Positions 2,404-63,994 of a stretch of 64,000 nt of DNA are shown here, piece by piece; positions within the stretch are counted from its first letter, which is position 1, and each line of letters opens with the position of its first letter. The stretch covers positions 67,683-131,682 of the forward strand of contig WGBD01000002.1 of NCBI GenBank assembly GCA_015494465.1, given 5' to 3'. Source of the stretch: Candidatus Omnitrophota bacterium. Lineage in GTDB: Bacteria; Omnitrophota; Gorgyraeia; S143-82. The notes below the pieces were generated by a model. It searched no databases, was not told the DNA's origin, and worked only from the letters and a program-made list of their open reading frames with translations. Both the position numbers and the translations under genes were made by a program.

Positions 2404-2601
2404 GCAACAACCTTTTAATTGCCCTGTTGTCCCCGATCCCCCTCACCTCCAAAAGACGGCAGACCTTACAACTAATGATAACCCGTTTTGTATCTTTGCT
2501 CAATAGCAAGGGAACAGCCCTTAGCAAAACCAATAGAAATATGGGGAGATACACCAAGAGATGTCTTAAAAGGCCGCGAATAAGGGACCGCTTAAAGGAA
2601 A

Positions 2602-2766
2602 TCACCGCTTACGGAGCTCTTTAAGTATCTCGTCCAAGGTCCGGGCGATCCTCTTTAAGAGCTCGTTGTTCTCCTGAAGAAGTTTATCGTGCTTGGCCTG
2701 TATCTTCTTTGCCTCCTGCGCAGCCTTGGCCAGTGCAGCCATATCCTTGAGATTACCGAAATTCAT
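2602..2766 (-). CDS. Small hypothetical coiled-coil protein (54 aa)
   Basis: The 2602..2937 ORF overlaps tRNA-Leu(TAA), so it is trimmed to the internal ATG at 2766. That ATG is preceded by a strong SD (AAGGAGG, 7 nt spacer). Sequence MNFGNLKDMAALAKAAQEAKKIQAKHDKLLQENNELLKRIARTLDEILKELRKR. Confidence 0.4.
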   Translation of the reverse strand: MNFGNLKDMAALAKAAQEAKKIQAKHDKLLQENNELLKRIARTLDEILKELRKR

Positions 2767-2790
2767 GGACCAACCTCCTTGATTTTCCCG

Positions 2791-2876
2791 TGCCGGGAGC
2801 CGGACTTGAACCGGCACGCCCACAAAGGGGCGAGGGATTTTAAGTCCCTTGCGTCTGCCAATTCCGCCATCCCGGC
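2791..2876 (-). tRNA. tRNA-Leu (anticodon TAA), class II
   Basis: Reverse complement reads GCCGGGATGGCGGAATTGGCAGACGC-AGGGA-CTTAAAA-TCCCT-(long variable arm)-GCCGGTTCAAGTCCGGC-TCCCGGCA. Anticodon TAA. Confidence 0.8.
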
Positions 2877-2909
2877 CAAGAGGGAAGGGTCGCGAATCAA
2901 CCCCAAATC

Positions 2910-2985
2910 TGGAGGTGGCGGTGGGATTTGCACCCACGAATAGCGGTTTTGCAGACCGCCCCCTTAGCTACTTGGGCACGCCACC
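2910..2985 (-). tRNA. tRNA-Cys (anticodon GCA), CCA encoded
   Basis: Reverse complement reads GGTGGCG...GCGGT-CTGCAAA-ACCGC...GGTTCAAATCC...CGCCACC-T-CCA. Confidence 0.8.
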
Positions 2986-3061
2986 GTGAAGATAAATTCT
3001 ATTAGAAAAGGCTTAGGTTATCAAGCCCAAAGTCCTCTCCTTAATTAAGGAATCTTTACTA

Positions 3062-3089
3062 TTGACAAACCCAGTTTTACACATAAAAT
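3062..3089 (+). promoter_or_regulatory. Sigma-70-like promoter for rpsT (TTGACA, 16 nt spacer, TAAAAT)
   Basis: -35 TTGACA at 3062-3067 and -10 TAAAAT at 3084-3089, about 45 nt upstream of the rpsT GTG. SD AAGGAGG at 3119-3125. Confidence 0.4.
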
Positions 3090-3134
3090 ATTTCATTCAC
3101 GAAAGTGGACGCGCATTAAGGAGGTAAGTGGGTC

Positions 3135-3404
3135 GTGCCGAACAGACACTGCAAACTCAAGGCCCTCAGGGCAAGCGAAAAGCGCAGGGTAAGGAACCTG
3201 CGGGTAAAGCGCCATGTGAAGAAGACGGTCAAGGCCTATCTTAAGGCCGTCGCCAACAAGGATGTAGAGACGGCCCGGGAGATGTTGCCGACCGTTTTTT
3301 CAGTCTTGGATAAGGCAGCCAAGTACGGGGTCATAAAGAAGAACACCGCCAGCCGGAAGAAGTCCCGGCTCAGCCGGAAACTCTCCGCACTGGTAGGGGC
3401 CTAA
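3135..3404 (+). CDS. rpsT: 30S ribosomal protein S20
   Basis: 89-aa basic protein with the S20-like pattern (KRHVKKTVKAYLKAV...KAAKYGVIKKNTASRKKSRLS). GTG start with SD. Confidence 0.85.
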   Translation: MPNRHCKLKALRASEKRRVRNLRVKRHVKKTVKAYLKAVANKDVETAREMLPTVFSVLDKAAKYGVIKKNTASRKKSRLSRKLSALVGA

Positions 3405-3958
3405 GCCCCTCCCAATCTGTACTCCACGAAGTCCAGAAGGTCTGCACAGACCAAATCCGGCCGATAGTTTTCCGGCCATTCCTTAGGATCGTACACACGA
3501 ACCTGCCCCGACATAACCAAGGCGGTCCTTATCCCTATCCGCTTCCCTGCGACGATGTCCTTGTCGCTATCGCCGACCATAAATATCTCGTCCTTTGGCA
3601 CATCCGGATAATCCTTCAGCACCTGCTCGAAAAACAGGGTCCCCGGTTTACGACAGGCACAGCCCTCATCCGGCCGGTGGGTGCAGTAGAAAACCCGCTT
3701 TAAGGTTATTCCCCTCTCCTCTAGGGCGTCCAGCATGTTCCGGGTAATCTCCTCCAGTGCCTCTTTGCTGTATATCCCCCTTCCCACCCCTGCCTGATTG
3801 GAGACGACGAAGATTTCATAACCTGCAGATGCCAACCTCTCAAGGGCCTTCAGCGAACGCTCTATAAACCTAAACTCCTGCCAAGAGGTTACATACTTCC
3901 CGTATCCGGGGAACTGGTTTATCACCCCGTCCCTGTCCAGGAATATTACCTTTCTCAT
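3401..3958 (-). CDS. gmhB: D-glycero-D-manno-heptose 1,7-bisphosphate phosphatase / HAD-IIIA family phosphatase
   Basis: Motif FLDRDGVIN, VSNQ, a Cys cluster (CTHRPDEGCACRKP), and GDSDKD. Confidence 0.75.
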   Translation of the reverse strand: MRKVIFLDRDGVINQFPGYGKYVTSWQEFRFIERSLKALERLASAGYEIFVVSNQAGVGRGIYSKEALEEITRNMLDALEERGITLKRVFYCTHRPDEGCACRKPGTLFFEQVLKDYPDVPKDEIFMVGDSDKDIVAGKRIGIRTALVMSGQVRVYDPKEWPENYRPDLVCADLLDFVEYRLGGA

Positions 3959-4755
3959 CTCTCCTTTAGCACCTTTATCATCTGGCGGTGCAGGCGCCCG
4001 TTGCTTGCCACCACCTCGGGACGAAAGGGGTCAAACTCGCCTCCGGAGAAATTGCTCACCCTCCCGCCCGCGCACTTCACCATCAAGGCACCTGCAGGGG
4101 TATCCCAAGGCTTCAGGTTGGGCTCCCAGAATCCGTCGAACCTCCCGCAGGCTACATAACACAGGTCCAGCGCTGCCGAACCGTCCCTCCTCACCCCTTG
4201 GGCCCGGTGGAGGAAGGCAATAAAGTGCCCCACATTGTTGTCGGAATCGGAACTGAACCGGTAGGCAAAGCCGGTGCAGACGAGGGCGTCTTCCAAGCGG
4301 GATATCTCGGAGACCCTTATCCTTTTTCGGTTCAGAAAGGCCCCCTCCCCGTCGGAATAAAAGAGTTCTTCCCGAGTGGGGTCGTAGACCACTCCCAAAA
4401 GGACCTCTTTCCCCTGCATCAGGGCAATGGAAGTGCAAAACACGGGATAACCGTGGGCAAAGTTGTTCGTCCCGTCTAGGGGGTCTATTGCCCAGAAGAG
4501 TTCCGCATCCGGGACCTCGGCATTCCTTTCCTCTGCCAGAAAACCGAACTCCTTCCACCTTCGGGAAAGTTCGTTCTTGTAGAACTCTTCTACATACAGG
4601 TCCACCTCGGTCACCAGGTCCTTTTTCCCCTTCTTCCTGCTCCTGGTCCTACCCAAGCGGGAGAGCATATAGGCCCCCGCGCGCAAGGCAAGTTCCTTTA
4701 TCTCCCTTAGGATCCCTCTCCTCTCTCTCTTGCTCAGCACCACCGCTCTCCTCAC
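3955..4755 (-). CDS. Inositol monophosphatase / FBPase-IMPase family protein
   Basis: IMPase signatures WAIDPLDGTNNF and GYPVFCTSIAL. Confidence 0.75.
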   Translation of the reverse strand: MRRAVVLSKRERRGILREIKELALRAGAYMLSRLGRTRSRKKGKKDLVTEVDLYVEEFYKNELSRRWKEFGFLAEERNAEVPDAELFWAIDPLDGTNNFAHGYPVFCTSIALMQGKEVLLGVVYDPTREELFYSDGEGAFLNRKRIRVSEISRLEDALVCTGFAYRFSSDSDNNVGHFIAFLHRAQGVRRDGSAALDLCYVACGRFDGFWEPNLKPWDTPAGALMVKCAGGRVSNFSGGEFDPFRPEVVASNGRLHRQMIKVLKER

Positions 4756-5999
4756 CGGAACAACCTCTCTCCCCTTATCAGGTCCTTAAAGGTCTCCCTC
4801 CTCCTGACCAAGGAAAACCTATCGCCCTCCACCATCACCTCCGCAGGCCGAGGGCGGGAGTTGTAGTTGCTGGCCATCACGAAGCCGTAGGCACCGGCAC
4901 TAAAGACCGCCAACAGATCCCTCGAATCCACCTGAGGGATCTGTCTGTCCTTGGCAAAGAAGTCCCCGCTCTCGCAGACCGGCCCTACCACATCGCAGGT
5001 CATCGTCTCCGAGGTCCTCTCTACCACCGGCCATATGCGGTGATAGGCCTTGTAGAGAGACGGCCTTATGAGATCGTTCATCGCCCCGTCCACCACCACG
5101 AAGTTCTTGGCGGGCGTGCGCTTGACATAGATAACCCTGCAGACGAATATCCCCGAATTGCCGGCGATAAACCTGCCCGGTTCCATCACCATCTTCAGGC
5201 CCAAACGCTTTACATAGGGAATTATCCGACTCGCAAAGACCTCCGCACTGTCGGGATCCTCGTCCTTGTACCTTATCCCCAATCCCCCACCGATGTTGAG
5301 GTACTTAAGGGACCTCGCCTTTGGGCCAAGTCCCTTGATGAACTTCTCCACCTTATCCAAGGCGGTCGCGTAGGGGCTGGTGTCCACTATCTGGGAGCCG
5401 ATGTGGACATGGATCCCCACGATCTCCACCCATGGATAGCGCTTGGGGTTGGAGAATATCTGCTCTGCGGTGTAAAGGTCCACACCAAACTTGTTCTCCT
5501 TCTTTGCGGTGGTGATGTAATCGTGGGTGCGGGCATCGACATCGGGATTCACCCGTATGGCCACCCGCGCCCTTTTCCTCAACCTGCTGGCGACCCTGCT
5601 CAACAGCTCCAGTTCCGCCGACGACTCGACATTGAACATAAGTATGCCCCAGTTGAGGGCCATCTCCATGTCCTCTTCCCTCTTGCCCACGCTGGCGTAG
5701 ACCACCTTTCTGGGGTCGGCCCCGATCCTCTGCACCCGATATATCTCACCGGCAGACACCACATCAAACCCCGAACCCAGCCCCTTAAGGGTGTCCAACA
5801 CCGCCAGATTGGAGTTGGCCTTAACCGAATAGCATATCAACGGCCGAACCTCCCGAAAGGCCCGCTCGAGTTGCTGGTACCTGTCCCTTAAGGAAGATCG
5901 GCTGTAGACGTATACCGGACTACCGTAGCGGGAGACTATCTTCCTCACCGGAACGGCCTCACAGAACAACTCTCCGTTTTCGTATCTAAACCAGTCCAT
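4752..5999 (-). CDS. lysA: Diaminopimelate decarboxylase
   Basis: Fold-III PLP decarboxylase motifs YSVKANSNLAVL and GSGFDVVSAGE. 415 aa. Confidence 0.85.
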   Translation of the reverse strand: MDWFRYENGELFCEAVPVRKIVSRYGSPVYVYSRSSLRDRYQQLERAFREVRPLICYSVKANSNLAVLDTLKGLGSGFDVVSAGEIYRVQRIGADPRKVVYASVGKREEDMEMALNWGILMFNVESSAELELLSRVASRLRKRARVAIRVNPDVDARTHDYITTAKKENKFGVDLYTAEQIFSNPKRYPWVEIVGIHVHIGSQIVDTSPYATALDKVEKFIKGLGPKARSLKYLNIGGGLGIRYKDEDPDSAEVFASRIIPYVKRLGLKMVMEPGRFIAGNSGIFVCRVIYVKRTPAKNFVVVDGAMNDLIRPSLYKAYHRIWPVVERTSETMTCDVVGPVCESGDFFAKDRQIPQVDSRDLLAVFSAGAYGFVMASNYNSRPRPAEVMVEGDRFSLVRRRETFKDLIRGERLFR

Positions 6000-6002
6000 G
6001 GC

Positions 6003-7370
6003 TTATCTCCTCCCCTCCAACAGCCTTATCTGTCGCTCCACATTACCCCAAGCGGTACCGTTGTAAGAGGTCTTGGACTCCACGGACCTGACCGGATCGA
6101 ACAGGGAGCGATAGACCCCCTCCTCTATGTCCACCAGCAACTCCTTCCTGACCAGATCCATCGGCAGGTCCCTGAGGCGGATACCTTCCTTTTCCGCCCG
6201 CCTCACCAGACGCCCCACCGCCATGTGGGCCCTCCTGCTGTCCAGTCCCATCTTTATGAGGACCTCCATAATATCCGTGGCGTAGAGGTAATCGTTCTCC
6301 AAAAGTGCAGACAGCCTCTCTTCCACCAACTCCAGCCCCTTTATCACCGAGGTGCAAACGCCCAGCATCTGGAAGAGGAGCGCGCTCAGGGAGAAGAATA
6401 CCTCCTTGTCCTCCTGCATGTCCCGATTGTAGGTCATAGGCAGGGCCTTCAGTATCGTCAGCAACCTCGTCAGGCCCAGCATCAACTCCACGCTCCTTGC
6501 CCGCATCAGTTCCATGGAGTCGGGATTGCGTTTGTGGGGCATTATACTGGATCCGGTGGAGAACTCCTCGGGTATCCTCAGAAAACCGAACTCGTTCGAC
6601 GAATACATAATCCAGTCCTCCGCCATACGGGAGAGTATCAAACCTACCCTCCCCATCACATACAGGGCATCCAGAAAGTAATCCCGGTTGGCAATCGCAT
6701 CCATACTGTTCTCGTAGATCCGGCTCAGTCCCAGCTCCCCTGCTATGTCCTCGGCAGAGACCGGAAGGGATGTCCCCGCCCCTGCACAGGCGGTAAATGG
6801 AGAGGAAAGACCCGAACGGAAGAAGGTGCACAGTTCCTTTATCCTCTCTATAGCAAAGGCGTAGGAAAGAAGATAATGACTGAAGTAGACCACCTGTGCA
6901 CCCTGCAGGTGGGTGTAAGAGGGGATTATCTTGCCCTTGAGGTCCTTGGCCTTCTCTACCAGGGCATCCTGCAGACGGGATAGGGCGTCGTAGACGCCCC
7001 CGTACCAGTCCCTCAACATCAGTATGCTGTCCCCAGCGACCAGGTCGTTGCGACTGCGGGCGGTGTGAACCTTATCCGCCAGAGATCCCACCACCTCCCG
7101 CAGGGCCTCCTGGACGAAAGAATGCACATCCTCTTCCTCGTAATCCGGGGAGGAATACAACTTGGATATCTTCTCAAGACCTGCTAGAATCTTTTGTGCC
7201 TCCTCACCGCTCAACAGACCCGCCTTCGCGAGGGCCTTCACATGGGCCCGCGTGGCCTCTATCTCGTAAGGATACAAGAATCTATCCGCCTTCCCCCCTC
7301 GGGAAAACTCCCACATCTCCTCTGCGGGCCCCTTCTCAAACCGTCCTCCCCAGAACTGCGCTCTGGCCAT
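6003..7370 (-). CDS. argH: Argininosuccinate lyase
   Basis: N-terminal WGGRFEKGP and the fumarate-lyase signature GSSIMPHKRNPD. 455 aa. Confidence 0.9.
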   Translation of the reverse strand: MARAQFWGGRFEKGPAEEMWEFSRGGKADRFLYPYEIEATRAHVKALAKAGLLSGEEAQKILAGLEKISKLYSSPDYEEEDVHSFVQEALREVVGSLADKVHTARSRNDLVAGDSILMLRDWYGGVYDALSRLQDALVEKAKDLKGKIIPSYTHLQGAQVVYFSHYLLSYAFAIERIKELCTFFRSGLSSPFTACAGAGTSLPVSAEDIAGELGLSRIYENSMDAIANRDYFLDALYVMGRVGLILSRMAEDWIMYSSNEFGFLRIPEEFSTGSSIMPHKRNPDSMELMRARSVELMLGLTRLLTILKALPMTYNRDMQEDKEVFFSLSALLFQMLGVCTSVIKGLELVEERLSALLENDYLYATDIMEVLIKMGLDSRRAHMAVGRLVRRAEKEGIRLRDLPMDLVRKELLVDIEEGVYRSLFDPVRSVESKTSYNGTAWGNVERQIRLLEGRR

Positions 7371-19918: not shown

Positions 19919-20576
19919 TCTCTATCCTCCGGGCCGAGAGGTACTCCACCGCAGACTCGTCGTGGGTGATGAACAGGACCGCAAACGATCCTTCCCTCTG
20001 GAGGTTGAGGATGAGGTCCAATATCCCCCGACGCAGGTCTGCGTCCAAGGACGAGGTGATCTCGTCGCCTATGAGGAGGGCGGGCTCCAAGAGGAGGGTC
20101 TGGGCTATGGCCACCCTCTGGGCCATCCCCCCGCTCAACTGAAACGGGTACTTCCTCTTTACCTCCAGTGGCAGGCCCACCTTCTTCAGCACCCCATCTA
20201 TACTCTCCTGCACTCCCTTGGTTATCCCCTTGAGCAGGAGGACCTCCCTTAAGATATTATCCACCCGCATTATTGGATTGAGATAGGCGTGGGGCTGTTG
20301 GAATACTATACCGATCCCCTGTCCCCGTATCCGGCGGAAGTCCTCCTCATCCTCAAGAAGAGCACCCTTAAAGCGTATCTGTCCTTCCCAGACCGCGTTT
20401 TCGGGCAAGAGTCCCAACAGGGCCAAGGCTACGGTGCTCTTACCCGAGCCGGAAGGCCCGAGCAGGGCGACGATTTCCCCTTCTTTGATCTCCAGATCAA
20501 ACCCCTTGACGACCTGTTTCAGCCCCTCAGGGGTCCTATAGGATATCCCCAGAGCGGATACCTTTAACAGACTCAT
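19911..20576 (-). CDS. ABC transporter ATP-binding protein (OppD/DppD-like)
   Basis: Walker A GPSGSGKST, signature LSGGMAQR, Walker B LIGDE. It overlaps the ugd stop by 4 nt. Confidence 0.85.
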   Translation of the reverse strand: MSLLKVSALGISYRTPEGLKQVVKGFDLEIKEGEIVALLGPSGSGKSTVALALLGLLPENAVWEGQIRFKGALLEDEEDFRRIRGQGIGIVFQQPHAYLNPIMRVDNILREVLLLKGITKGVQESIDGVLKKVGLPLEVKRKYPFQLSGGMAQRVAIAQTLLLEPALLIGDEITSSLDADLRRGILDLILNLQREGSFAVLFITHDESAVEYLSARRIEIG

Positions 20577-21886
20577 CCCACGCGTATGTACTTACGAGCG
20601 TACCTGCGGATCAGTTCGGGGTTGTAGATGTTCCTGCCGTCGTAAACGACCTTGCCTTTGAACAGAGTCGGGTTGATGTCCTTATACTCCGGCCAGTCGG
20701 TCACCACCACTACCGCCTCGCAGTCCTTTATCAGATGCTGAGGATCATCCGCTACCCGAACCGAGTCTGCCAGATCACCCAAAGCAGAGAGGAAGTTATC
20801 CACCGCCACCGGATCGTGGACCGTCAACCTCGCACCCTCCTCAAGCAGGGCTCGGGCAATATCTATGGCCGGGGATTGGCGCACGTCGTCGGTACCGGGC
20901 TTGAAGGCAAGGCCGAGAAGGCCAACACTTCTTCCTTTTAAAGAGGCGAATTCCCCCCGCAAGGCCTCCACAGGTTTCATCCTCTGCCGGGCGTTCACCT
21001 TCATCACTGCAGACAGGAGCTCCACTTCCACCCCAACCGAGCGGGCGGTGGATATCAGGGCCGAGACATCCTTGGGGAAACAACTTCCCCCAAATCCAAG
21101 CCCTGCCTTTAGAAAGTAGGGGGATATCCGGTGGTCCAGACCCAATCCCCGGGACACCGTATCCACATCCGCCCCTAACCGCTCGCACATGTTGGCTATC
21201 TCGTTGATAAACGATATCTTGGTGGCCAGGAAGGCGTTTGAGGCGTACTTTATCATCTCCGCAGTGGCTATGTCGCAGACTAAGAGGGTGGGATTTACCT
21301 TCTCGTACAAAGACGCCACCTTCCAGGCAGCCTCCCGGTTGTCACTCCCTATCACCACCCTATCCGGGTTCATAAAGTCGTAGACCGCCTTACCCTCCCG
21401 CAAGAACTCGGGATTGGAGACCACATCAAAGCAGGCCTCGGGATGCCTTATACCCCTGCGGGTCAATTCCCCCAAGAGGAATGCCCTTGCCCATCGGCCA
21501 GTTCCCACCGGAACGGTGGACTTGTTGACGATGATCTTGTAGTCCCCTTCCTGCAGGTGCTCTGCTATGCCCTGAAGTGCGGACTCCACGAAGGACAGGT
21601 CCGCCGAACCGTCCGGCCTTGGAGGGGTACCCACGGATGTAAAGATAAAGTCTGCAAATCCAACCGCCTCTGCGTAATCCTCGGTGAAATTTATCCTGCC
21701 TTCGGAGCGCACGAAAGAGAACATCTCATCCAACTCGGGCTCGTATATAGGCAACTCACCTGCCTTCAGGCGGGCAACCTTGAAGGGGTCCTTGTCTAGT
21801 CCCAACACATCATGTCCCAGATAGGCGAAGCCTATTCCCGAGACCAGTCCGACATATCCCGTACCGATAACCGATATCCGCGCCAT
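20573..21886 (-). CDS. Nucleotide-sugar dehydrogenase (UDP-glucose 6-dehydrogenase family)
   Basis: N-terminal Rossmann fold ISVIGTGYVGLVSG and a catalytic region GGSCFPKD. 437 aa. Confidence 0.85.
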   Translation of the reverse strand: MARISVIGTGYVGLVSGIGFAYLGHDVLGLDKDPFKVARLKAGELPIYEPELDEMFSFVRSEGRINFTEDYAEAVGFADFIFTSVGTPPRPDGSADLSFVESALQGIAEHLQEGDYKIIVNKSTVPVGTGRWARAFLLGELTRRGIRHPEACFDVVSNPEFLREGKAVYDFMNPDRVVIGSDNREAAWKVASLYEKVNPTLLVCDIATAEMIKYASNAFLATKISFINEIANMCERLGADVDTVSRGLGLDHRISPYFLKAGLGFGGSCFPKDVSALISTARSVGVEVELLSAVMKVNARQRMKPVEALRGEFASLKGRSVGLLGLAFKPGTDDVRQSPAIDIARALLEEGARLTVHDPVAVDNFLSALGDLADSVRVADDPQHLIKDCEAVVVVTDWPEYKDINPTLFKGKVVYDGRNIYNPELIRRYARKYIRVG

Positions 21887-21901
21887 AGAAGGGATTATAC
21901 A

Positions 21902-22813
21902 TCAGGTCTTCTCCAAAATACAGATGTAAAAGCCCTCCATGGTCTCGGTGGGGATCACATGCCAGCCAAGTCCGTTTATACCCGGAAAGACATTCTTAAA
22001 GGGCAGGGCAAAGTCCACGGGTCGCAGATCCGGGAACTTGTTAAGTATCCACTCCATCAACCACTCGTTCTCCTCGGGGGAGAAGGTGCAGGTGGAGTAG
22101 ACCAGTCTTGCCCCCTCCTGCATACAGCGATAGGCAGAGATAAGGAGCCTGCGCTGTTTCCTCGTCATCTCCTTGACCTTGCGCAGGGACCAATAGGCAT
22201 AACTCCGGGGATCGTGGGGATCAAACCGCCCCTCCGCACTGCAGGGGGCATCCAAGAGGACCCTATCGAACCGTCCCGCGTACCTGCGGAAGAGGACCCC
22301 AGCGTCTCCCAAGAGAAGGTCTGCCTCCCTACAGCCCTGCAATTCCAGATTCGCCTTCAGACGATAGAACCTCGGTTTCACCTTCTCCACCGCCAGAAGA
22401 TAGGCACCGGGAGGCAACATTGCACAGATCTGGGTGGTCTTGCTCCCGGGGGCAGCGCACATGTCCAATACACTGCGGGCGGACTCCAATTCCATGTACA
22501 AAGGGGGGAGCATGCTGGAGAGGTTTTGGAGGTATATCTTGCCCTCGCGATAGAGGTGTGTCTCTTGGAGCTCCCTTTGAGTCGGGGACAGGAGCACGAA
22601 GGCCCAGTCAAACCAGGGGACCTCCCTCAGACGCAGGCCAAGGGCTCTGGCCTCCTCCAGGAAGGCCCGCCGATCTATCTTGAGGGGATTTATCCGAAAT
22701 GTCGTCAACCTCTTCCCGGTGAGACCGCGCAATATCTCAGCGAAGTGCTGGGGGAAGAACTCTTCCAACCTCTCTAAAAACTGGGCGGGAAATCTATCCT
22801 TCAACGAGGCCAT
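21902..22813 (-). CDS. RNA cytosine-C5 methyltransferase, RsmB/RsmF (NOL1/NOP2/Sun) family
   Basis: Motifs DMCAAPGSKT and DAPCSAEG. Confidence 0.8.
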   Translation of the reverse strand: MASLKDRFPAQFLERLEEFFPQHFAEILRGLTGKRLTTFRINPLKIDRRAFLEEARALGLRLREVPWFDWAFVLLSPTQRELQETHLYREGKIYLQNLSSMLPPLYMELESARSVLDMCAAPGSKTTQICAMLPPGAYLLAVEKVKPRFYRLKANLELQGCREADLLLGDAGVLFRRYAGRFDRVLLDAPCSAEGRFDPHDPRSYAYWSLRKVKEMTRKQRRLLISAYRCMQEGARLVYSTCTFSPEENEWLMEWILNKFPDLRPVDFALPFKNVFPGINGLGWHVIPTETMEGFYICILEKT

Positions 22814-23300
22814 GGCGCGCCTTCATAAACACATAACCGGTGGCTACTGCGATGGCATCGCTCACATCCAAGGGGTGATCCTTTATCCCCTCTCCCAGCG
22901 AATACATCTGGGCTATAACCCCCCTCACCTGCTCCTTTGAGGCATTCCCCCTGCCGGTGATGGCCCGCTTTATCCGGGCAGGAGATATCTCGGAGACCCT
23001 TGCCCCGCTCCTCTGGGCCGAGAGAAGCAGAATCCCCCGGGCGTGTCCCATGATCACCGAGGTGTAGGGGTGCTGACGGTGAGAATATATCGACTCAAAC
23101 ACCACCACCGCAGGCCGGTAAGAGGAGAACAACTCACAGGCGCTTTCGTAGAGGAAGTTGAGCCTCCAGGAAAGGGACTTACCACTGGGTATCTTGAAGA
23201 CCCCTTTGTCCTCGAGATAACACCTGCGGGAGTGGACTCTAAGTACCGCGTATCCGGTCTGCCTTATCCCGGGATCTATACCTACGACGATACCTTCCAC
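22794..23300 (-). CDS. ruvC: Holliday junction resolvase RuvC
   Basis: Motif GIDPGIRQTGYAV plus conserved acidic residues. 168 aa. Confidence 0.85.
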   Translation of the reverse strand: MEGIVVGIDPGIRQTGYAVLRVHSRRCYLEDKGVFKIPSGKSLSWRLNFLYESACELFSSYRPAVVVFESIYSHRQHPYTSVIMGHARGILLLSAQRSGARVSEISPARIKRAITGRGNASKEQVRGVIAQMYSLGEGIKDHPLDVSDAIAVATGYVFMKARHGLVEG

Positions 23301-23301
23301 A

Positions 23302-24045
23302 TCAACAACACTTCACACCCAACACCGCACTATCGCCATAACCCCTTACCAACACCTCTCCCACCGCATCCCGGGACAACTCCACGAACCTGCGTATCTT
23401 CTCGGGAGGGTGAACCCAATCCGGGCAGTGTTCCGGATCCAAGACATACTCCGGCCGATAGGCCTGCAAGACATAGCGTCGGGCAGAGGCGATCTCCTCT
23501 GCGATGGCCTTGATGTCCTCTTCCTCCACGAACCCCGGCACGACCGTGGTGCGAAACTCGTAATCCGGGGCAAGGGAGATGATCAGGGAGATGCTCTTGC
23601 GGATTCGCTCCACACCGTCGGGAGCAGACAGGCCCAGTTCGGGATACCTCTCCAGACGGGTCTTTACATCCATCGCCAGGTAGTCCAACTGCCCCTCCCT
23701 CAGGAGCAACTCCAGCACACCGGGGTTGGTCCCATTGGTATCCAGCTTGACCTTGTATCCCAAGGACTTTATCTGGTGTATGGCGTTGGGAAGATCCGCG
23801 TGGAGCGTGGGCTCCCCGCCGGTGATACAGACGCCCTCGAGAAAGGTCTTGCGGTGAGAGAGGTAGTCCAGGACCTCCTCCCACCGCTCCTTATAGACCT
23901 CTTCAGGCTCGTATTCGCAGGGGAGGAGGGCCACATTGTGGCAATAAGGACAGCGCAGATTGCACCCCTGCAAAAAGACTATCGCGCACAGGTGATTGGG
24001 ATAATCAACGAGCGACAGTCTCTGTAGTCCGGCAACCGGGAGCAT
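23302..24045 (-). CDS. nrdG: Anaerobic ribonucleoside-triphosphate reductase activating protein (radical SAM)
   Basis: Motif CNLRCPYCHN near the N-terminus. It sits immediately downstream of nrdD and the glycyl-radical gene. Confidence 0.8.
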   Translation of the reverse strand: MLPVAGLQRLSLVDYPNHLCAIVFLQGCNLRCPYCHNVALLPCEYEPEEVYKERWEEVLDYLSHRKTFLEGVCITGGEPTLHADLPNAIHQIKSLGYKVKLDTNGTNPGVLELLLREGQLDYLAMDVKTRLERYPELGLSAPDGVERIRKSISLIISLAPDYEFRTTVVPGFVEEEDIKAIAEEIASARRYVLQAYRPEYVLDPEHCPDWVHPPEKIRRFVELSRDAVGEVLVRGYGDSAVLGVKCC

Positions 24046-24175
24046 GCAGACCTTCCTCCTTGACCTTGAAGGTCTTCCTGTCCTTGAATTCCTCCTGCTT
24101 GCCCTTGTTCCACTCCTGCACCGGACGGAAGAATCCGGTTACCCGAGAGAATACCTCAACTTTGCACCTTCCCAT
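24005..24175 (-). CDS. Small glycyl-radical domain protein (56 aa) matching the C-terminal NrdD glycyl radical motif, encoded as a separate ORF
   Basis: Sequence MGRCKVEVFSRVTGFFRPVQEWNKGKQEEFKDRKTF matches the class III RNR Gly-radical consensus (RVxGY/F...WNKGK..E...R). It has its own SD, AAGGAGGGGG, 5 nt before the ATG. Its frame differs from that of nrdD. Confidence 0.6.
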   Translation of the reverse strand: MGRCKVEVFSRVTGFFRPVQEWNKGKQEEFKDRKTFKVKEEGLHAPGCRTTETVAR

Positions 24176-24206
24176 AGCCCCCTCCTTTCTTTTTTCCTGT
24201 TTCCAC

Positions 24207-26198
24207 CTATCCCTCGACACTGGCCAGGTCTTCGTAAGGGCACTTGAAGTGCGCACCCGGTATAAGCCCGTGATTCGGACATATCGTAAAGGTCGGCGTT
24301 ATCGTAAAGTAAGGCAGACGATAGTTCTGGGCTATCACCCGTACCAACTTCTTCACCGTCTCCCCGCTGTCCAGGCTCTCTCCCAAGAAGATGTGGAAGA
24401 CCGTACCGCCGGTGTAAAGCGTCTGGAGGTCGTCCTGATGATCCAGGGCCCAGAAGAGATCGTCGGTGTAATTGACCGGCAACTGGGAGGAATTCGTGTA
24501 ATAGGGCTCCTCCTTGCCCTGGGTCTTTATGTCCGCAAACCGCTCCTTGTCCATCTTCGCCAGTTTGTAGGCGGTGCTCTCCGCAGGTGTTGCCTCCAAG
24601 TTGTAGAGGTGCCCCGTCTCTTCCTGGAATTCCCGCATCTTTTCCCGAATGTACTTGAGCACCTTTATGGCAAAGGCCTTGCCCTCGGGATGGGCGATGC
24701 TGACCCCGAGGAAGTTCAGACACATCTCGTTCATCCCCACCACCCCTATGGTGGAGAAGTGGTTGGCCCAGTAACTGCCAAATCTGGACTTGATGTCCGA
24801 GAGGTAGTGTCGGGAGTAAGGATAGAGTCCCTTCTCGGTGAACCTCTCCAGGACCTCCCGCTTTATCTCCAGAGAGGTCTTGGCCAAATCCAAGAGGTGG
24901 TCTAGACGGGCGAAGAACTCCTCCTCGCTGTCCGAGAGGTAGCCGATGCGGGGCATGTTCAGGGTGACCACCCCGATGGAGCCGGTCATCGGATTGGATC
25001 CGAAGAGACCTCCTCCCCGCTTCCGCAGTTCCCGATTGTCCAACCTCAGACGACAGCACATGCTCCGGGCATCCGAGGGATCCATGTCGCTGTTTATGAA
25101 GTTGGAGAAGTAAGGGATACCGTACTTGGCGGTCATCTCCCACAACGGCTCCAAGAGTGGATTGTCCCAGTCGAAGTCCTTGGTGATGTTGTAGGTGGGG
25201 ATCGGGAAGGAGAATATCCTGTGCTTGGCATCCCCCTCTATCATCACCTCGCAGAAGGCCCGGTTTATCCAGTCCGCCTCCTTCTGGAACTCCTTGTACT
25301 TCTTGTCCTTGAACTCACCCCCGACGATGACATACTCCTCTTTAAGCATGTCGGGGATGGTGAGGTCCATAGTGATGTTGGTAAACGGGGTCTGGAACCC
25401 GACCCGCGTGGGCACATTTATGTTGAATATGAACTCCTGCATGTACTGCTTGACCTGTTCGTAGGTCAGGCCGTCGTAGTAGACGAACGGTGCCAAGAGG
25501 GTGTCGAAGTTGGAGAAGGCCTGGGCGCCCGCTGCCTCTCCCTGCAGGGTATAGAAGAAGTTGACGATCTGTCCCAAGGCGGTGCGGAAGTGCTTGGGCG
25601 GTCGGGATTCCACCTTACCGTAGGCACCACCAAAGCCCCGCAGGAGCAGGTCCTTGAGGTCCCATCCACAGCAGTAGACGCTGATAGAACCGAGGTCGTG
25701 GATGTGGAAGTCCCCGTTGCGGTGGGCGTCTGCCACCTCCTTGGGGTACACCTTGGTGAGCCAGTATCCGCTGGCAACGGTGGTGGAGATGTAGTTGTTC
25801 AACCCCTGGAGGGAATAGCCCATGTTGGCGTTTTCCTTGACCTTCCAGTCCCTCTGGTTGATGTAGTCGTCTATCATGTCCACCGCATCCCGCAGGAGCT
25901 GGTGGACCTCCCTTATCTTGGCGTGCTGTTCCCGATAAAGTATGTAGGCCTTGGCGGTCTTGGCGTGCCCGTTCTCTATCAGCATCTTCTCCACGAGATC
26001 CTGCACCTCTTCCACCGTCGGTATGCGGTCGTCTTTGTAGAGGATCTCAAGGATGGAGACCACCTGGTTGGCTATCTTCTTGGCGGGCTCCCTGTCCTTG
26101 CCCCCTACCGCTTGGGCAGCCTTGAAGATGGCGTTCTCGATCTTCTCGGGATTGAACTTCTCCAACCGGCCGTCGCGTTTGCGGATGTACTTGATCAT
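24207..26198 (-). CDS. nrdD: Anaerobic ribonucleoside-triphosphate reductase (class III) catalytic subunit, ending before the glycyl radical motif
   Basis: N-terminal ATP-cone (KRDGRLEKFNPEKIENAI), conserved NrdD core blocks, and a C-terminal Zn-ribbon-like CPNHG...KCP. The stop codon falls just upstream of the Gly-radical sequence. Confidence 0.85.
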   Translation of the reverse strand: MIKYIRKRDGRLEKFNPEKIENAIFKAAQAVGGKDREPAKKIANQVVSILEILYKDDRIPTVEEVQDLVEKMLIENGHAKTAKAYILYREQHAKIREVHQLLRDAVDMIDDYINQRDWKVKENANMGYSLQGLNNYISTTVASGYWLTKVYPKEVADAHRNGDFHIHDLGSISVYCCGWDLKDLLLRGFGGAYGKVESRPPKHFRTALGQIVNFFYTLQGEAAGAQAFSNFDTLLAPFVYYDGLTYEQVKQYMQEFIFNINVPTRVGFQTPFTNITMDLTIPDMLKEEYVIVGGEFKDKKYKEFQKEADWINRAFCEVMIEGDAKHRIFSFPIPTYNITKDFDWDNPLLEPLWEMTAKYGIPYFSNFINSDMDPSDARSMCCRLRLDNRELRKRGGGLFGSNPMTGSIGVVTLNMPRIGYLSDSEEEFFARLDHLLDLAKTSLEIKREVLERFTEKGLYPYSRHYLSDIKSRFGSYWANHFSTIGVVGMNEMCLNFLGVSIAHPEGKAFAIKVLKYIREKMREFQEETGHLYNLEATPAESTAYKLAKMDKERFADIKTQGKEEPYYTNSSQLPVNYTDDLFWALDHQDDLQTLYTGGTVFHIFLGESLDSGETVKKLVRVIAQNYRLPYFTITPTFTICPNHGLIPGAHFKCPYEDLASVEG

Positions 26199-26237
26199 GT
26201 CGCCCCCCTTATACTAACAAAACCTGTTGAAGGAAAT

Positions 26238-28514
26238 CTACTTGCCGTACTTCTTCCTCAGGATCCGCGCCGCCTCTACCATGTTGGAGAGAGAACGCTT
26301 CACCTCAGGCCAGTCGCGGGTCTTCAGTCCGCAGTCGGGATTGACCCACAACAACTCCTTCTTTATCCCCCGGCGCAGACACTCCTCAAGGAGTTCCAAG
26401 ATCTCCTCCACCGGAGGCACCCGCTTGCTGTGTATGTCGTAGACCCCGGGGCCGATGCACTTGTCGTAGCGGTACTCCCGGAATACATCCAAGAGTTCTC
26501 CCCGGGACCTGGCGTTCTCTATGCTTATCACATCCGCATCCATCTCCGAGATGGCGCTGATGATGTCGTTGAAGTCGGAGTAGCACATGTGGGTGTGGAT
26601 CTGGGTCTCCGGCCTCACCCCGGATGTGGTCAACCTAAACGACTTCACCGCCCAGTCCAGATAGGCCCTGCGCTTGCGGGCCTTCAAGGGCAGGCCCTCC
26701 CTCAAGGCAGGCTCGTCTACCTGTATTGCCTTTATACCGACCTTCTCTAAATCCAACACCTCCTCCCGCAGGGCCAAGGCAATCTGATAGGCCACCTCCT
26801 TGCGGGGTATGTCCGTGCGCACGAAGGACCAGTTCAATATCGTAACCGGACCGGTAAGCATGCCCTTCACCGGCCTTTCGGTCTGCTCCTGCGCGTACCT
26901 TATCTCGTTGACGGTCATAGGGGCGGGGCGAGAGACATCTCCGTATATGATGGGAGGACGCACGCACCGGGAACCGTAGGACTGGACCCACCCGTTCTTG
27001 GTAAAGGCAAAGCCCTTCATCTTCATACCGAAGAACTCCACCATGTCCGTGCGCTCAAACTCCCCGTGCACCAAGACATCCAGCCCTAATTCCTCCTGAA
27101 ACCTTATTACCTCCCTTATCTTCTCGGCAATGAAGACCTGATAGGCCAACTCGCTTATCTGCCCGCTCCGGTACAACCTGCGCATCCGCCTGACCTCTTG
27201 GGTCTGGGGGAAACTGCCGATAGTGGTGGTGGGGAACAACGGCAGATTCAGGAGCTTCTTCTGCAGGGCAAACCTCTTGGCAAAGGGCACGCCCCTGTCG
27301 AAGTCCGAAGGACTCAGGGCCTTCATCCTGCGCCTGACCTCGGGATCGTTGCGGAAGGCCTCTCTCTCCAGTCTCTTGAACAGGGCCCTGTTTGCCCTCA
27401 AGAGGGATGTGTTCCCTCTCCATACCTTCCTTATGTCCACCAACTCCTTAATTTTCTCTATCGCAAACGCAAGGTAAGGCTGAATCTCGCCCAGATCCTC
27501 TCCCTCAACCGTGTAAGGGACGAATTGCAGGGAAGACGACGGCGAGAGCATAGAATTACTCAGGTCGATCTTCTTGGCCAACCCCTTCAAGAGGGTGATG
27601 ACCTGGGAGTAGTCGGTACGCCAGACATTCCTGCCGTCCACTACCCCCAGGACGAGTCTGAGGCCCTCAGGGAGCCTGGTGCGAGAGAGGGCCTTAAGGT
27701 TTGCCTCCCTGCCCCGTACCATGTCCAGCCCAATATAGGCGAACCCCCACTTTACTGCCTCAGGTAGGTGCTCCTCTACGGACTCGAAATAGGTCTGGAG
27801 GACAAACCTCGTCTTCTTCCCGTAGCGGGCGTTGAGATCTCTATAATAGCCCCCGAGCCTCTTCACCGCCTTCTTATCCCTGCCGTAGACCAAGGCGGGC
27901 TCGTCTATTTGGATGTACCTTGCCCCCGCGGAGACCAAGGAGTTTACAACTTCCTCGAACACCGGCCAGAGGGCAGACATCCACTCCACCAGCGTGGTCT
28001 CGGACTCCACCTTGGCCAACTTCAGGAAGGTATACGGACCGATGAGAACCGGCTTGAGCTCCACCTTCCGGCCCTTCAGCCACCGTTTGGCCTTGTTGAA
28101 CTCGTCCAACATCCAGTTGTACTGCAGGTGGAACTCCCCATCCACCTCGGGCACTATGTAGTGATAATTGGTATCAAACCACTTGGTCATCTCTAGAGCG
28201 GGATTGCGGGCATCCCCCCGGGCGTAGACGAAGTACTTATCCAGCCAATCCGCAGAAGGGGAAAACCTAAACCGCTTCCCCGCGCACCCGTACATCCAGG
28301 CGGTGTCCAGGACCCCATCGTAAAGGGAGAAGTCCCCTACCGGTATCACCTCCACGCCGAGATCGGCCTGCAGTAGGAGGTGTTCCTTTTTCAAGGCATC
28401 CACCTTCTTCAGGAACTCCTCCCGGCCTATCTCCTTCCTCCAGAAGGACTCCAAGAGGAACTTCAACTCCCGATTCCTGCCTATTCTGGGAAAGCCCAAG
28501 GTGGTGATCTTCAT
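26238..28514 (-). CDS. metE: Cobalamin-independent methionine synthase
   Basis: 758 aa with N-terminal MKITTLGFPRIGRNREL and the two-domain MetE architecture. Confidence 0.9.
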   Translation of the reverse strand: MKITTLGFPRIGRNRELKFLLESFWRKEIGREEFLKKVDALKKEHLLLQADLGVEVIPVGDFSLYDGVLDTAWMYGCAGKRFRFSPSADWLDKYFVYARGDARNPALEMTKWFDTNYHYIVPEVDGEFHLQYNWMLDEFNKAKRWLKGRKVELKPVLIGPYTFLKLAKVESETTLVEWMSALWPVFEEVVNSLVSAGARYIQIDEPALVYGRDKKAVKRLGGYYRDLNARYGKKTRFVLQTYFESVEEHLPEAVKWGFAYIGLDMVRGREANLKALSRTRLPEGLRLVLGVVDGRNVWRTDYSQVITLLKGLAKKIDLSNSMLSPSSSLQFVPYTVEGEDLGEIQPYLAFAIEKIKELVDIRKVWRGNTSLLRANRALFKRLEREAFRNDPEVRRRMKALSPSDFDRGVPFAKRFALQKKLLNLPLFPTTTIGSFPQTQEVRRMRRLYRSGQISELAYQVFIAEKIREVIRFQEELGLDVLVHGEFERTDMVEFFGMKMKGFAFTKNGWVQSYGSRCVRPPIIYGDVSRPAPMTVNEIRYAQEQTERPVKGMLTGPVTILNWSFVRTDIPRKEVAYQIALALREEVLDLEKVGIKAIQVDEPALREGLPLKARKRRAYLDWAVKSFRLTTSGVRPETQIHTHMCYSDFNDIISAISEMDADVISIENARSRGELLDVFREYRYDKCIGPGVYDIHSKRVPPVEEILELLEECLRRGIKKELLWVNPDCGLKTRDWPEVKRSLSNMVEAARILRKKYGK

Positions 28515-28571: not shown

Positions 28572-28639
28572 CACAATATATTGTGGTTCACTATTGCTCA
28601 AGCCACTATATATTGTAATCCGGGCGGGAATATTGTCAA
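28572..28639 (-). promoter_or_regulatory. metE promoter (TTGACA, 16 nt spacer, TACAAT) overlapped by palindromic operator-like sites
   Basis: Perfect 14-bp palindrome CACAATATATTGTG at 28572-28585. Near-palindrome CACTATATATTGTA at 28604-28617 overlapping the -10. An ACAATAT half-site within the -35 at 28631-28639. Confidence 0.45.
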
Positions 28640-48204: not shown

Positions 48205-48280
48205 TGCGCCTGGACGGATTCGAACCGCCGCAAGACGTGCCTTAGGAGGGCACCGCTCTATCCTACTGAGCTACAGGCGC
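48205..48280 (-). tRNA. tRNA-Arg (anticodon CCT)
   Basis: Reverse complement reads GCGCCTG-TA-GCTC...GAGC-G-GTGCC-CTCCTAA-GGCAC...GGCGG-TTCGAAT-CCGTC-CAGGCGC-A. Confidence 0.75.
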
Positions 48281-48282
48281 AT

Positions 48283-48459
48283 CTATTCCAGGGTTATGGC
48301 CTCTACCGGACAGGCGCTCACGCAGGCCCCGCAGTCCACGCAGGTAGAGGGATCAACTTTTGCCTTGCCGTTGTCCTGCATCGTGATGGCGCCAACCGGA
48401 CAAGCAGCAACGCAGGCACCACAGCCAACGCACTTTTCCTCGTTTACCACTGCCGGCAT
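48283..48459 (-). CDS. 2[4Fe-4S] ferredoxin (58 aa), absent from the ORF track
   Basis: Translation MPAVVNEEKCVGCGACVAACPVGAITMQDNGKAKVDPSTCVDCGACVSACPVEAITLE has two CxxCxxCxxxCP motifs. SD GGAGG lies 6 nt upstream of the ATG. Confidence 0.8.
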   Translation of the reverse strand: MPAVVNEEKCVGCGACVAACPVGAITMQDNGKAKVDPSTCVDCGACVSACPVEAITLE

Positions 48460-48478
48460 CTGAGACCTCCTTTTAAAA

Positions 48479-48556
<78 letters not shown>

Positions 48557-62502: not shown

Positions 62503-62808
62503 ATTGCCCTGCTGATAGAGTAATAAGCCGAGTTCTGTCTGGGCGGTCATCCATCTGCGCGGGGGATCGCTCCCCCGCTCTAGCGGCCAACCCGAGGGCA
62601 ATGCCCGGGCCAGGCAACCCTCCTACTTGGCCTTGCTGCGGGTAGAGATTACCCTGTGGGGGGATAGAACCCACCACGGGCTCTTATCCTGCCCGCGGGG
62701 AAGATCCCACGCGGACGGTGGGTGTTACCCACTACCCTGCCCTCTGCAGCTCGGACTTTCCTCCCGTCCTTGAGGACAGGCGACCGCCTTACTCTATCAG
62801 CAGGGCAA
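62503..62808 (-). ncRNA. rnpB: RNase P RNA (bacterial type A, compact ~306 nt)
   Basis: Minus strand contains GGAAAGTCCGAGCTGCAGAGGGCA (P4 5' strand) and ACAGAACTCGGCTTA (P4 3' strand). The P1 helix forms by GCCCTGCTGATAGAGTAAG pairing with CTTATTACTCTATCAGCAGGGC. The ORFs overlapping it are spurious. Confidence 0.8.
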
Positions 62809-63920: not shown

Positions 63921-63994
63921 TGGGCGATAGAGGATTCGAACCTCTGACCTTCCGCATGTGAGGCGGACGCTCTGACCAACTGAGCTAATCGCCC
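63921..63994 (-). tRNA. tRNA-Val (anticodon CAC)
   Basis: Reverse complement reads GGGCGAT-TA-GCTCAGTTGGTCAGAGC-G-TCCGC-CTCACAT-GCGGA-AGGTC-AGAGG-TTCGAAT-CCTCT-ATCGCCC-A. Confidence 0.8.

Follow-up and report, generated by a model that had tools for sequence, protein, structure and literature searches.

A predicted two-polypeptide class III ribonucleotide reductase from Omnitrophota, with its glycyl-radical domain on a separate small gene

Class III (anaerobic) ribonucleotide reductase serves as a model for glycyl-radical enzymes and is thought to stand close to the ancestral enzyme of DNA-precursor synthesis. In the described systems, from phage T4, Escherichia coli, Thermotoga maritima and Prevotella copri, a one-piece reductase, NrdD, is paired with an activase, NrdG. 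Here we analyse the nrdD-nrdG locus on a 64-kb stretch of an Omnitrophota genome (contig WGBD01000002.1), referred to below as the window. Like the one-piece systems, this locus specifies an ATP-cone, a ten-stranded barrel, a finger-loop cysteine and a predicted zinc-ribbon, followed in the same order by an RVxG[YF] loop, a WNxGK segment and an adjacent radical S-adenosylmethionine (SAM) activase. It differs in that the chain is broken between the third and fourth predicted zinc ligands, and the predicted radical glycine resides on a separate protein of 56 amino acids (aa) with its own ribosome-binding site. From the sequence comparisons presented below, we consider it likely that the window encodes a genuine two-polypeptide class III reductase whose two parts are obligate subunits.

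Several described arrangements resemble this one in part. Pyruvate formate-lyase (PFL) has spare parts in the form of E. coli GrcA/YfiD and phage T4 Y06I (PMC8683613). They share with the window protein the format of a small, free-standing copy of a glycyl-radical domain that is, or in the window would be, activated by the enzyme's own activase. However, they are homologous to the radical domain of PFL, whereas the window mini-protein matches only NrdD models, and the enzyme that GrcA rescues possesses a radical domain, whereas the window large subunit has none. Spare parts have been speculated for other glycyl-radical enzymes (PMC8683613) and, according to a 2026 review, are known only for formate lyases (PMC13450708). 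The class II reductase NrdJa/NrdJb (Pseudomonas aeruginosa, Thermus phage phiYS40) is also encoded by two consecutive genes, with a separate C-terminal zinc-finger piece (PMC9669993, PMC3653736), but this enzyme is B12-dependent, has no glycyl radical, and carries its reducing Cys pair on the second piece. According to a survey of insertions and extensions in reductases, splitting is distinct to class II (PMC9669993). Finally, phage nrdD genes that occupy several open reading frames (ORFs), as in T4 and Aeromonas phages, are interrupted by introns or homing endonucleases (PMC3653736); unlike the break described here, those breaks are caused by mobile elements, lie at other positions and are mended by splicing. 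A full-text literature search, with subscription-only papers and RNRdb outside its coverage, found no description of a split NrdD.

Division of the NrdD chain between two ORFs

Scans of both ORFs with Pfam and NCBIfam models divide the NrdD family profiles between them. The Pfam NRDD profile aligns over its positions 1-525 of 562 with residues 122-654 of the large ORF (E-value 3e-189) and resumes over positions 527-562 on the mini-ORF (E-value 1e-9, 38 bits against a cut-off of 26.2). NCBIfam NF006126 (684 positions) aligns over positions 2-646 on the large ORF, with 1066 bits against a cut-off of 548, and over positions 647-683 on the mini-ORF. So clean a division of the profiles across two ORFs is far beyond chance. 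The original prediction held that the 663-aa nrdD stops before its glycyl-radical motif and that this motif lies in another frame. Both points are borne out by the profile breaks at 525/527 and 646/647 and by the location of SRVTGFF and WNKGK on the 56-aa ORF, which is offset by one base from the nrdD frame.

The same model sets detect no glycine loop or radical domain in the window large subunit. The mini-protein matches NrdD models alone, with no match to a PFL-type radical-domain or GrcA model, and the 64-kb window contains no second copy of the radical motif. Because the large subunit has no radical domain, the mini-protein would be an obligate subunit. The large subunit also matches solved NrdD structures by sequence. 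Its sole match to class II reductase models in the NCBIfam scan is the ATP-cone, and its core is that of NrdD, not the B12-dependent class II core. The adjacent nrdG product is assigned to NrdG2 by NCBIfam TIGR02495 (210.9 bits against a cut-off of 131), matches Pfam Radical_SAM and Fer4_12, and contains a CNLRCPYCHN motif. Every class III feature of NrdD that we looked for is recognizable in the sequence, except that the radical motif does not sit on the same polypeptide: three predicted metal ligands remain on the 663-aa chain, together with the ATP-cone, the barrel and Cys382, and the 56-aa chain has Cys4, Gly14 and WNKGK.

The alignments locate the break with respect to catalytic and structural residues. 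Cys382 is matched in the alignment by residue 420 of the P. copri NrdD chain 8p23_A. This residue is Cys416 in native numbering, and Cys416 is the partner of Gly711 in that enzyme (PMC11226230). Comparison of the mini-protein alone, or of its profile, with solved structures gave no matches, the query being too short, and the C-terminus of a contiguous relative was used instead. In alignment to 4coi and 8p23, the mini-protein cysteine corresponds to the last Cys of the CPxC motif in T. maritima and P. copri NrdD. In the T. maritima enzyme, zinc is bound via CxxxHx6CxxC (Cys/His/Cys/Cys) in a ribbon that separates the last barrel strand from the glycine loop, and a contact of this ribbon with NrdG has been proposed (PMC4493059). 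The radical domain of the P. copri enzyme, including the zinc site, is highly mobile (PMC11226230).

Contiguous relatives share the consensus C-x2-H-G-x8-C-P-x-C-G-x3-EV[YW]SRVxGY across this region; the junction alignment also drew on a further homologue search that yielded mostly partial proteins. Split large subunits stop shortly after C-P, with tails that differ in length and sequence yet always follow C-P, and mini-proteins begin M-x2-4-C, in which the Cys is invariant. The residues invariant across 32 mini-protein relatives are C4, E7, V8, S10, R11, V12, G14, F16, R17, P18, V19, W22, N23, G25, K26, E29, F30 and R33. As aligned, the fission falls inside the second zinc knuckle, with three candidate ligands on the large chain and one (Cys4) on the small chain. 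In the window protein, Cys640, His643 and Cys653 probably act as zinc ligands, and the zinc site would be shared between the two chains. We also observed that FARVTGFF replaces FSRVTGFF in thirteen Omnitrophota mini-proteins (L025, L027, L028, L033, L034, L036, L042, L046, L053, L054, L056, L064 and L073), so that Ser is changed to Ala at the third residue ahead of the radical glycine.

In the enzyme that we propose, the mini-protein would dock on the large subunit, where Cys4 would complete the zinc site and the glycine loop would insert into the barrel beside Cys382. NrdG, with SAM, would abstract a hydrogen atom from Gly14 while the mini-protein is either free or already in the complex. In the manner of one-piece NrdD, the resulting glycyl radical would then give rise to the thiyl radical needed for nucleotide reduction. 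The coordinates of the features concerned are collected in Table 1.

Table 1. Features of the split nrdD-nrdG locus in the window (nt, nucleotides).
Feature	Position	Strand	Details
nrdD large subunit, 663 aa	26198..24207	minus	Ends ...HFKCPYEDLASVEG, also given ...TFTICPNHGLIPGAHFKCPYEDLASVEG; TAG at 24209-24207
ATP-cone, allosteric activity site, residues 3-93	25920..26192	minus	Pfam PF03477, E-value 8.7e-26
Cys382 in SMCCRLRLD, predicted thiyl-radical Cys of finger loop	25053..25055	minus	Structure-sequence alignment
First three zinc-ribbon ligands, large subunit (predicted)	24240..24281	minus	Cys640 24279-24281, His643 24270-24272, Cys653 24240-24242; Pro654 next
Acidic 9-residue tail YEDLASVEG and TAG	24207..24236	minus	Place where one-piece NrdD has the fourth zinc ligand
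31-nt spacer GTGGAAACAGGAAAAAAGAAAGGAGGGGGCT	24206-24176	minus	Contains Shine-Dalgarno GGAGGGGG at 24185-24178
Mini-ORF, 56 aa, MGRCKVEVFSRVTGFFRPVQEWNKGKQEEFKDRKTFKVKEEGLHAPGCRTTETVAR	ATG 24175-24173, stop 24007-24005	minus	Predicted glycyl-radical subunit
Mini-protein Cys4	24164-24166	minus	Predicted fourth zinc ligand
Mini-protein Gly14 in SRVTGFF	24134-24136	minus	Predicted radical site
Mini-protein WNKGK, residues 22-26		minus	
nrdG, 247 aa, radical-SAM activating enzyme	23302..24045	minus	Own Shine-Dalgarno AAGGAGGAAGG within mini-ORF tail

Conservation and translation of the split gene

The division of NrdD recurs widely among relatives. A search with the mini-protein returned 282 clusters, the best 120 of which are all free-standing proteins of 43-74 aa. 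A search with the large subunit returned thousands of relatives, and the best 120 are almost all 659-691 aa long and without a radical domain; the longer proteins among them have N-terminal or tail extensions, and they include one with an intein, one fusion and one contiguous protein. P0222, an Omnitrophota large subunit of 1006 aa, contains an intein-type endonuclease domain (PF14528). A large protein and a mini-protein identical to those of the window are on record from other assemblies.

A genome scan, limited to one genome per species, gave 244 confirmed places, and the locus counts below refer to the best 80. A free-standing mini-ORF is present at 75 of these, in most cases behind an nrdD of 667-777 aa and ahead of nrdG. 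The other five loci comprise three Thermoplasmata, one Dehalococcoidia and one fused Omnitrophota. The contiguous Thermoplasmata relatives (L051, L052, L060) have a thioredoxin-like domain (CPHCP) C-terminal to the radical domain. The nrdD / mini-ORF / nrdG layout occurs in dozens of genomes, mostly Omnitrophota, with further carriers in Desulfuromonadales/Thermodesulfobacteriota, Firestonebacteria, Goldiibacteriota and FCPU426. Where gene contexts were fetched for three distant mini-proteins and a fourth sub-type, the same gene order was found. In the cultured Geothermobacter hydrogeniphilus (GCA_002898515.1, L172), a mini-ORF (MATKCDARTEVYSRVCGFF..., at about 4596-4739) falls in a 261-nt gap between nrdD (2501-4492) and nrdG (4754-5449) for which no gene is recorded.

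The junctions between the two pieces are varied. Stop and start codons overlap as ATGA at 28 loci and are separated elsewhere by spacers of 5-123 nt, with each of the three frame offsets and each of the three stop codons represented. Even within the window's own clade, we found spacers of 16, 42, 44, 45 and 81 nt (31 nt in the window), offsets of 0, 1 and 2, and TAG or TAA stops. Because the junctions vary in spacer, frame and stop codon, no single indel or recoding signal explains the split. The original prediction had proposed a comparison of nrdD loci in related genomes and had named contiguous relatives differing by one base as counter-evidence. The comparison recovers the same split with different spacers, offsets and stops, and no contiguous NrdD was found among the clade relatives compared.

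Selection on the mini-ORF was assessed with 43 distinct nucleotide versions of its 27-codon core. Mean identity is 76% at the nucleotide level and 91% at the protein level. The differences number 2297, 1461 and 13438 at the first, second and third codon positions, with 78% at the third, and 11930 of the codon differences are synonymous as against 2266 non-synonymous. Purifying selection on the mini-ORF is strong. Of 42 distinct upstream regions, 40 carry a Shine-Dalgarno-like tetramer at a distance of 5-20 nt ahead of the ATG, and a naturally fused relative (L031) that lacks a Shine-Dalgarno serves as an internal control. The strong Shine-Dalgarno anticipated for the window is also present, with the end of GGAGG in GGAGGGGG located 5 nt from the ATG. 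The conserved ATG with a Shine-Dalgarno, or with an ATGA overlap, points to re-initiation or independent initiation. Taken together, the conserved split, the varied junctions, the purifying selection and the frequency of Shine-Dalgarno sequences support the original preference for real separate translation over a frameshift.

Upstream of the ATG in the window, 27 codons of the mini-ORF frame are open and overlap the end of nrdD; in relatives, this upstream frame is usually closed within 5-20 codons. Since the frame closes early in relatives, we assign the start to the ATG and not to an upstream GTG, and an 83-aa GTG-initiated ORF (24256..24005) was rejected as the conserved form. At its other end, the mini-ORF runs into nrdG, as had been noted: its variable tail overlaps the nrdG start (ATG at 24045) by 41 nt. 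This overlap is 38-50 nt in Omnitrophota, and the tail has a semi-conserved (C/S)RxTExxxG ending that may reflect only a constraint on the NrdG N-terminus in the other frame.

Rfam detected no RNA element near the nrdD/mini-ORF junction, and a promoter and terminator scan gave nothing convincing between nrdD, the mini-ORF and nrdG. These genes are tightly packed on one strand (20573-28514, minus) with two others: a 758-aa ORF (26238-28514), which we take from its sequence, without a family scan, to be metE, and a 168-aa ORF that is presumably ruvC-like. Upstream of the 758-aa ORF, at 28612-28639 on the minus strand, there is a near-consensus promoter of the sigma-70 type (TTGACA, 16 nt, TACAAT). 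Rfam found no cobalamin riboswitch in the window; it also finds an RNase P RNA (class A) at 62509-62799 (minus) and six tRNA genes (8-91, 2791-2985, 48205-48555 and 63921-63994).

Orphan and viral copies of the mini-gene

A profile search of 1.84 billion cluster representatives gave 4569 matches at E <= 0.001. The best 150 of these are almost all 47-120 aa long, and many belong to another sub-type, M[AS]KCGxK[TC]EV[YF]SRV[CTV]GYFRPVxNWN[KR]GK. These matches place the mini-protein in a large family of glycyl-radical proteins that are free-standing and of the NrdD type; this family has no model of its own in Pfam, NCBIfam or PHROGs. Three family proteins (P0364, P0370, P0374) have an internal duplication of the radical motif, e.g. 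...EVYSRVCGYFRPVSNWNKGRVCGYFRPVSNWNKGK..., and may be assembly artefacts.

Some copies are orphans without an adjacent nrdD. In Candidatus Tantalella remota, an orphan (L047, 3477-3659) lies downstream of genes for a hybrid-cluster protein, an Fe-S protein and a cupin, and upstream of genes for a ferritin-like protein, a flavodiiron protein and a desulfoferrodoxin; the same genome also has an operon copy (L045). A second orphan (L086, about 3501-3608) lies between a peroxiredoxin and a flavodiiron protein, and a third (L057) is listed in an oxygen-defence neighbourhood.

The mini-gene is also found in viruses. A search of IMG/VR gave at least 569 matching stretches, and the best 80 loci (L092-L171) were examined, using a different sub-type profile. 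An orphan mini-ORF is present at 69 of these 80 viral loci, with NrdD or NrdG within 4 kb at only six. A recurrent setting is a replication module comprising an exonuclease, a Sak4-like annealing protein, the mini-ORF, SSB, RusA and a helicase; in L103 the mini-ORF (4001-4141) has an ATG that overlaps the Sak4 stop. A tblastn search of deposited phage genomes with the window mini-protein gave four matches, three under annotated nrdD and one in an unannotated record; the phage orphans come from IMG/VR only. Two further viral arrangements were observed. On one viral contig (L115, 3985-6657), the order is mini-ORF, nrdG, nrdD, and nrdD itself takes the form of two ORFs (4888-6162 and 6166-6657). 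A 192-aa protein encoded on a short phage-like contig (L088, 645-1223) fuses a mini glycyl-radical segment to a dCMP deaminase domain, and its gene directly follows that of a ThyX-like thymidylate synthase.

Given that orphan and viral copies exist, the small piece evidently has value on its own. The phage-borne and stress-island mini-genes parallel Y06I and GrcA, and the original prediction had likened the window protein to GrcA/YfiD. The likeness holds in that both are small free-standing glycyl-radical proteins. It fails in that GrcA is a spare for an enzyme with its own radical domain, whereas the mini-protein would be obligate. The analogy thus appears to fit the orphan copies in other genomes and on viral contigs better than it fits the window mini-protein.

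Origin of the split, alternative explanations and implications

Several relatives bear on how the split arose. Three contiguous proteins (P0256, P0269, P0277) have an insert of 20-25 residues at the same knuckle, and in P0277 this insert is similar to the tails of two split subunits (P0236 and P0237), which suggests that insertion came first and fission later. A natural re-fusion of 731 aa (P0206/L031), recorded in several assemblies, is nested in a split Omnitrophota clade. Relative to a split locus (L032), a 1-nt insertion in an A-rich run joins its frames, and the Shine-Dalgarno is lost. An AlphaFold2 model of this fusion, computed with contiguous C-terminal fragments in the alignment, has a normal NrdD fold (predicted local distance difference test, pLDDT, 82.6; predicted template-modelling score, pTM, 0.78), and its best structural matches are NrdD structures. 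The 20-residue linker (659-678) is modelled with less confidence and the radical segment has pLDDT values of 78-86, suggesting that a linker at the junction could be tolerated. In a rough neighbour-joining tree without support values, contiguous and split lineages are interspersed, which suggests more than one transition between the two states.

Several explanations deny that the window encodes two working subunits. A sequencing or assembly frameshift in one continuous nrdD, or a decaying pseudogene, could be imagined because the mini-ORF is one base off the nrdD frame and the spacer contains A6 and G5 homopolymer runs. These runs come after the stop codon, however, and joining the frames leaves about 23 extra residues. 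The split is also found in dozens of independent assemblies and in a cultured isolate, with differing spacers, frames and stops, which contradicts the single-frameshift alternative raised in the original prediction; the identical proteins from other assemblies argue against an error as well, and purifying selection argues against a pseudogene. We regard the chance that this explanation is correct as negligible. Programmed recoding, by ribosomal frameshifting or stop read-through, would yield a full-length NrdD, and both the open frame upstream of the window ATG and the viability of a fused protein are compatible with it. There is, however, no slippery site ahead of the stop, and no single mechanism fits relatives whose two frames are related by 0, +1 or +2 and which mostly have the frame closed upstream of the ATG. 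With the conserved ATG and its Shine-Dalgarno or ATGA, and with no Rfam element at the junction, recoding is extremely improbable, and the programmed frameshift originally entertained becomes very unlikely. An intein or intron as the cause of the break was rejected, as only the 31-nt spacer, and no intervening element, separates the two ORFs. The mini-protein could instead be only a spare part or a regulator, for example an NrdG decoy, with the large subunit obtaining its radical from elsewhere or being inactive. The precedent of GrcA/YfiD and T4 Y06I for PFL (PMC8683613) and the existence of orphan and phage-borne copies lend this some plausibility, but a large subunit without its own glycine loop needs one in trans, the window offers no second motif copy, and the conserved gene order points to a subunit. 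We therefore consider this explanation very improbable.

The main rival concerns why the split persists. Under neutral fission at a permissive loop, the enzyme would truly be in two pieces, but the fragments would simply reassemble, with no functional consequence and no role in repair or exchange. The inserts at the same knuckle suggest such a permissive surface loop, the interspersed lineages of the rough tree are in keeping with it, and fused (731 aa) and split (678 aa) forms occur in one 90%-identity cluster, a 1-nt insertion apart. Against this explanation, the split dominates whole clades with its tuned coupling (ATGA overlap or strong Shine-Dalgarno) kept. Some genomes have extra orphan copies, part of them in oxygen-stress islands, and phages carry the small piece only, which is hard to explain without an independent role. 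On balance, we judge neutral fission to be a serious but rather unlikely account. Some observations nonetheless weigh against a shared zinc site or an adaptive split. Because fused (731/740 aa) and split (678 aa) forms occur within a single cluster, the split may be close to neutral rather than adaptive. His, Asp or Glu is often present just after C-P in the tails of split large subunits, and the fourth zinc ligand could therefore come in cis. The variable mini-protein tail may be conserved only because of the nrdG overlap. Oxygen-defence neighbours were found for only three of the nine bacterial orphans examined (two of about six distinct contexts), and the remaining orphans have unrelated neighbours.

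Returning to the two-polypeptide reductase, the piece that bears the radical may be cheap to replace. The radical glycine is the site at which oxygen cleaves glycyl-radical enzymes. Speculatively, in a split enzyme such damage would cost only the 6-kDa piece, which could be replaced without remaking the 76-kDa catalytic subunit, and a free radical domain might also spare the enzyme from pulling a buried loop out of the barrel for activation. This idea is suggested by the orphans that adjoin oxygen-defence genes, by the copies in phage replication modules and by the mobility of the radical domain in a one-piece enzyme. By extension, the mini-proteins could be exchangeable radical cartridges, serving as subunits in operons, as oxygen-stress-island copies that re-arm the reductase, and as phage genes of about 45 codons that re-arm or take over the reductase of the host. 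We offer this extension tentatively, as a real possibility that falls short of being probable. If true, this would for the first time extend spare-part systems beyond PFL to another glycyl-radical enzyme.

What appears to be new here is a class III reductase whose radical domain lies in trans and belongs to a broad, unannotated family. The mini-gene is easily missed by annotation, and a truncated nrdD could be misread as a pseudogene. A natural, free radical-loop peptide of about 6 kDa makes the access of the activase to a barrel-buried glycine directly testable, and this peptide is short enough that a synthetic version bearing isotope labels or unnatural residues could be made and supplied to the large subunit. 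Within the wider family, the orphan and phage-borne copies are candidates for spare parts beyond PFL.

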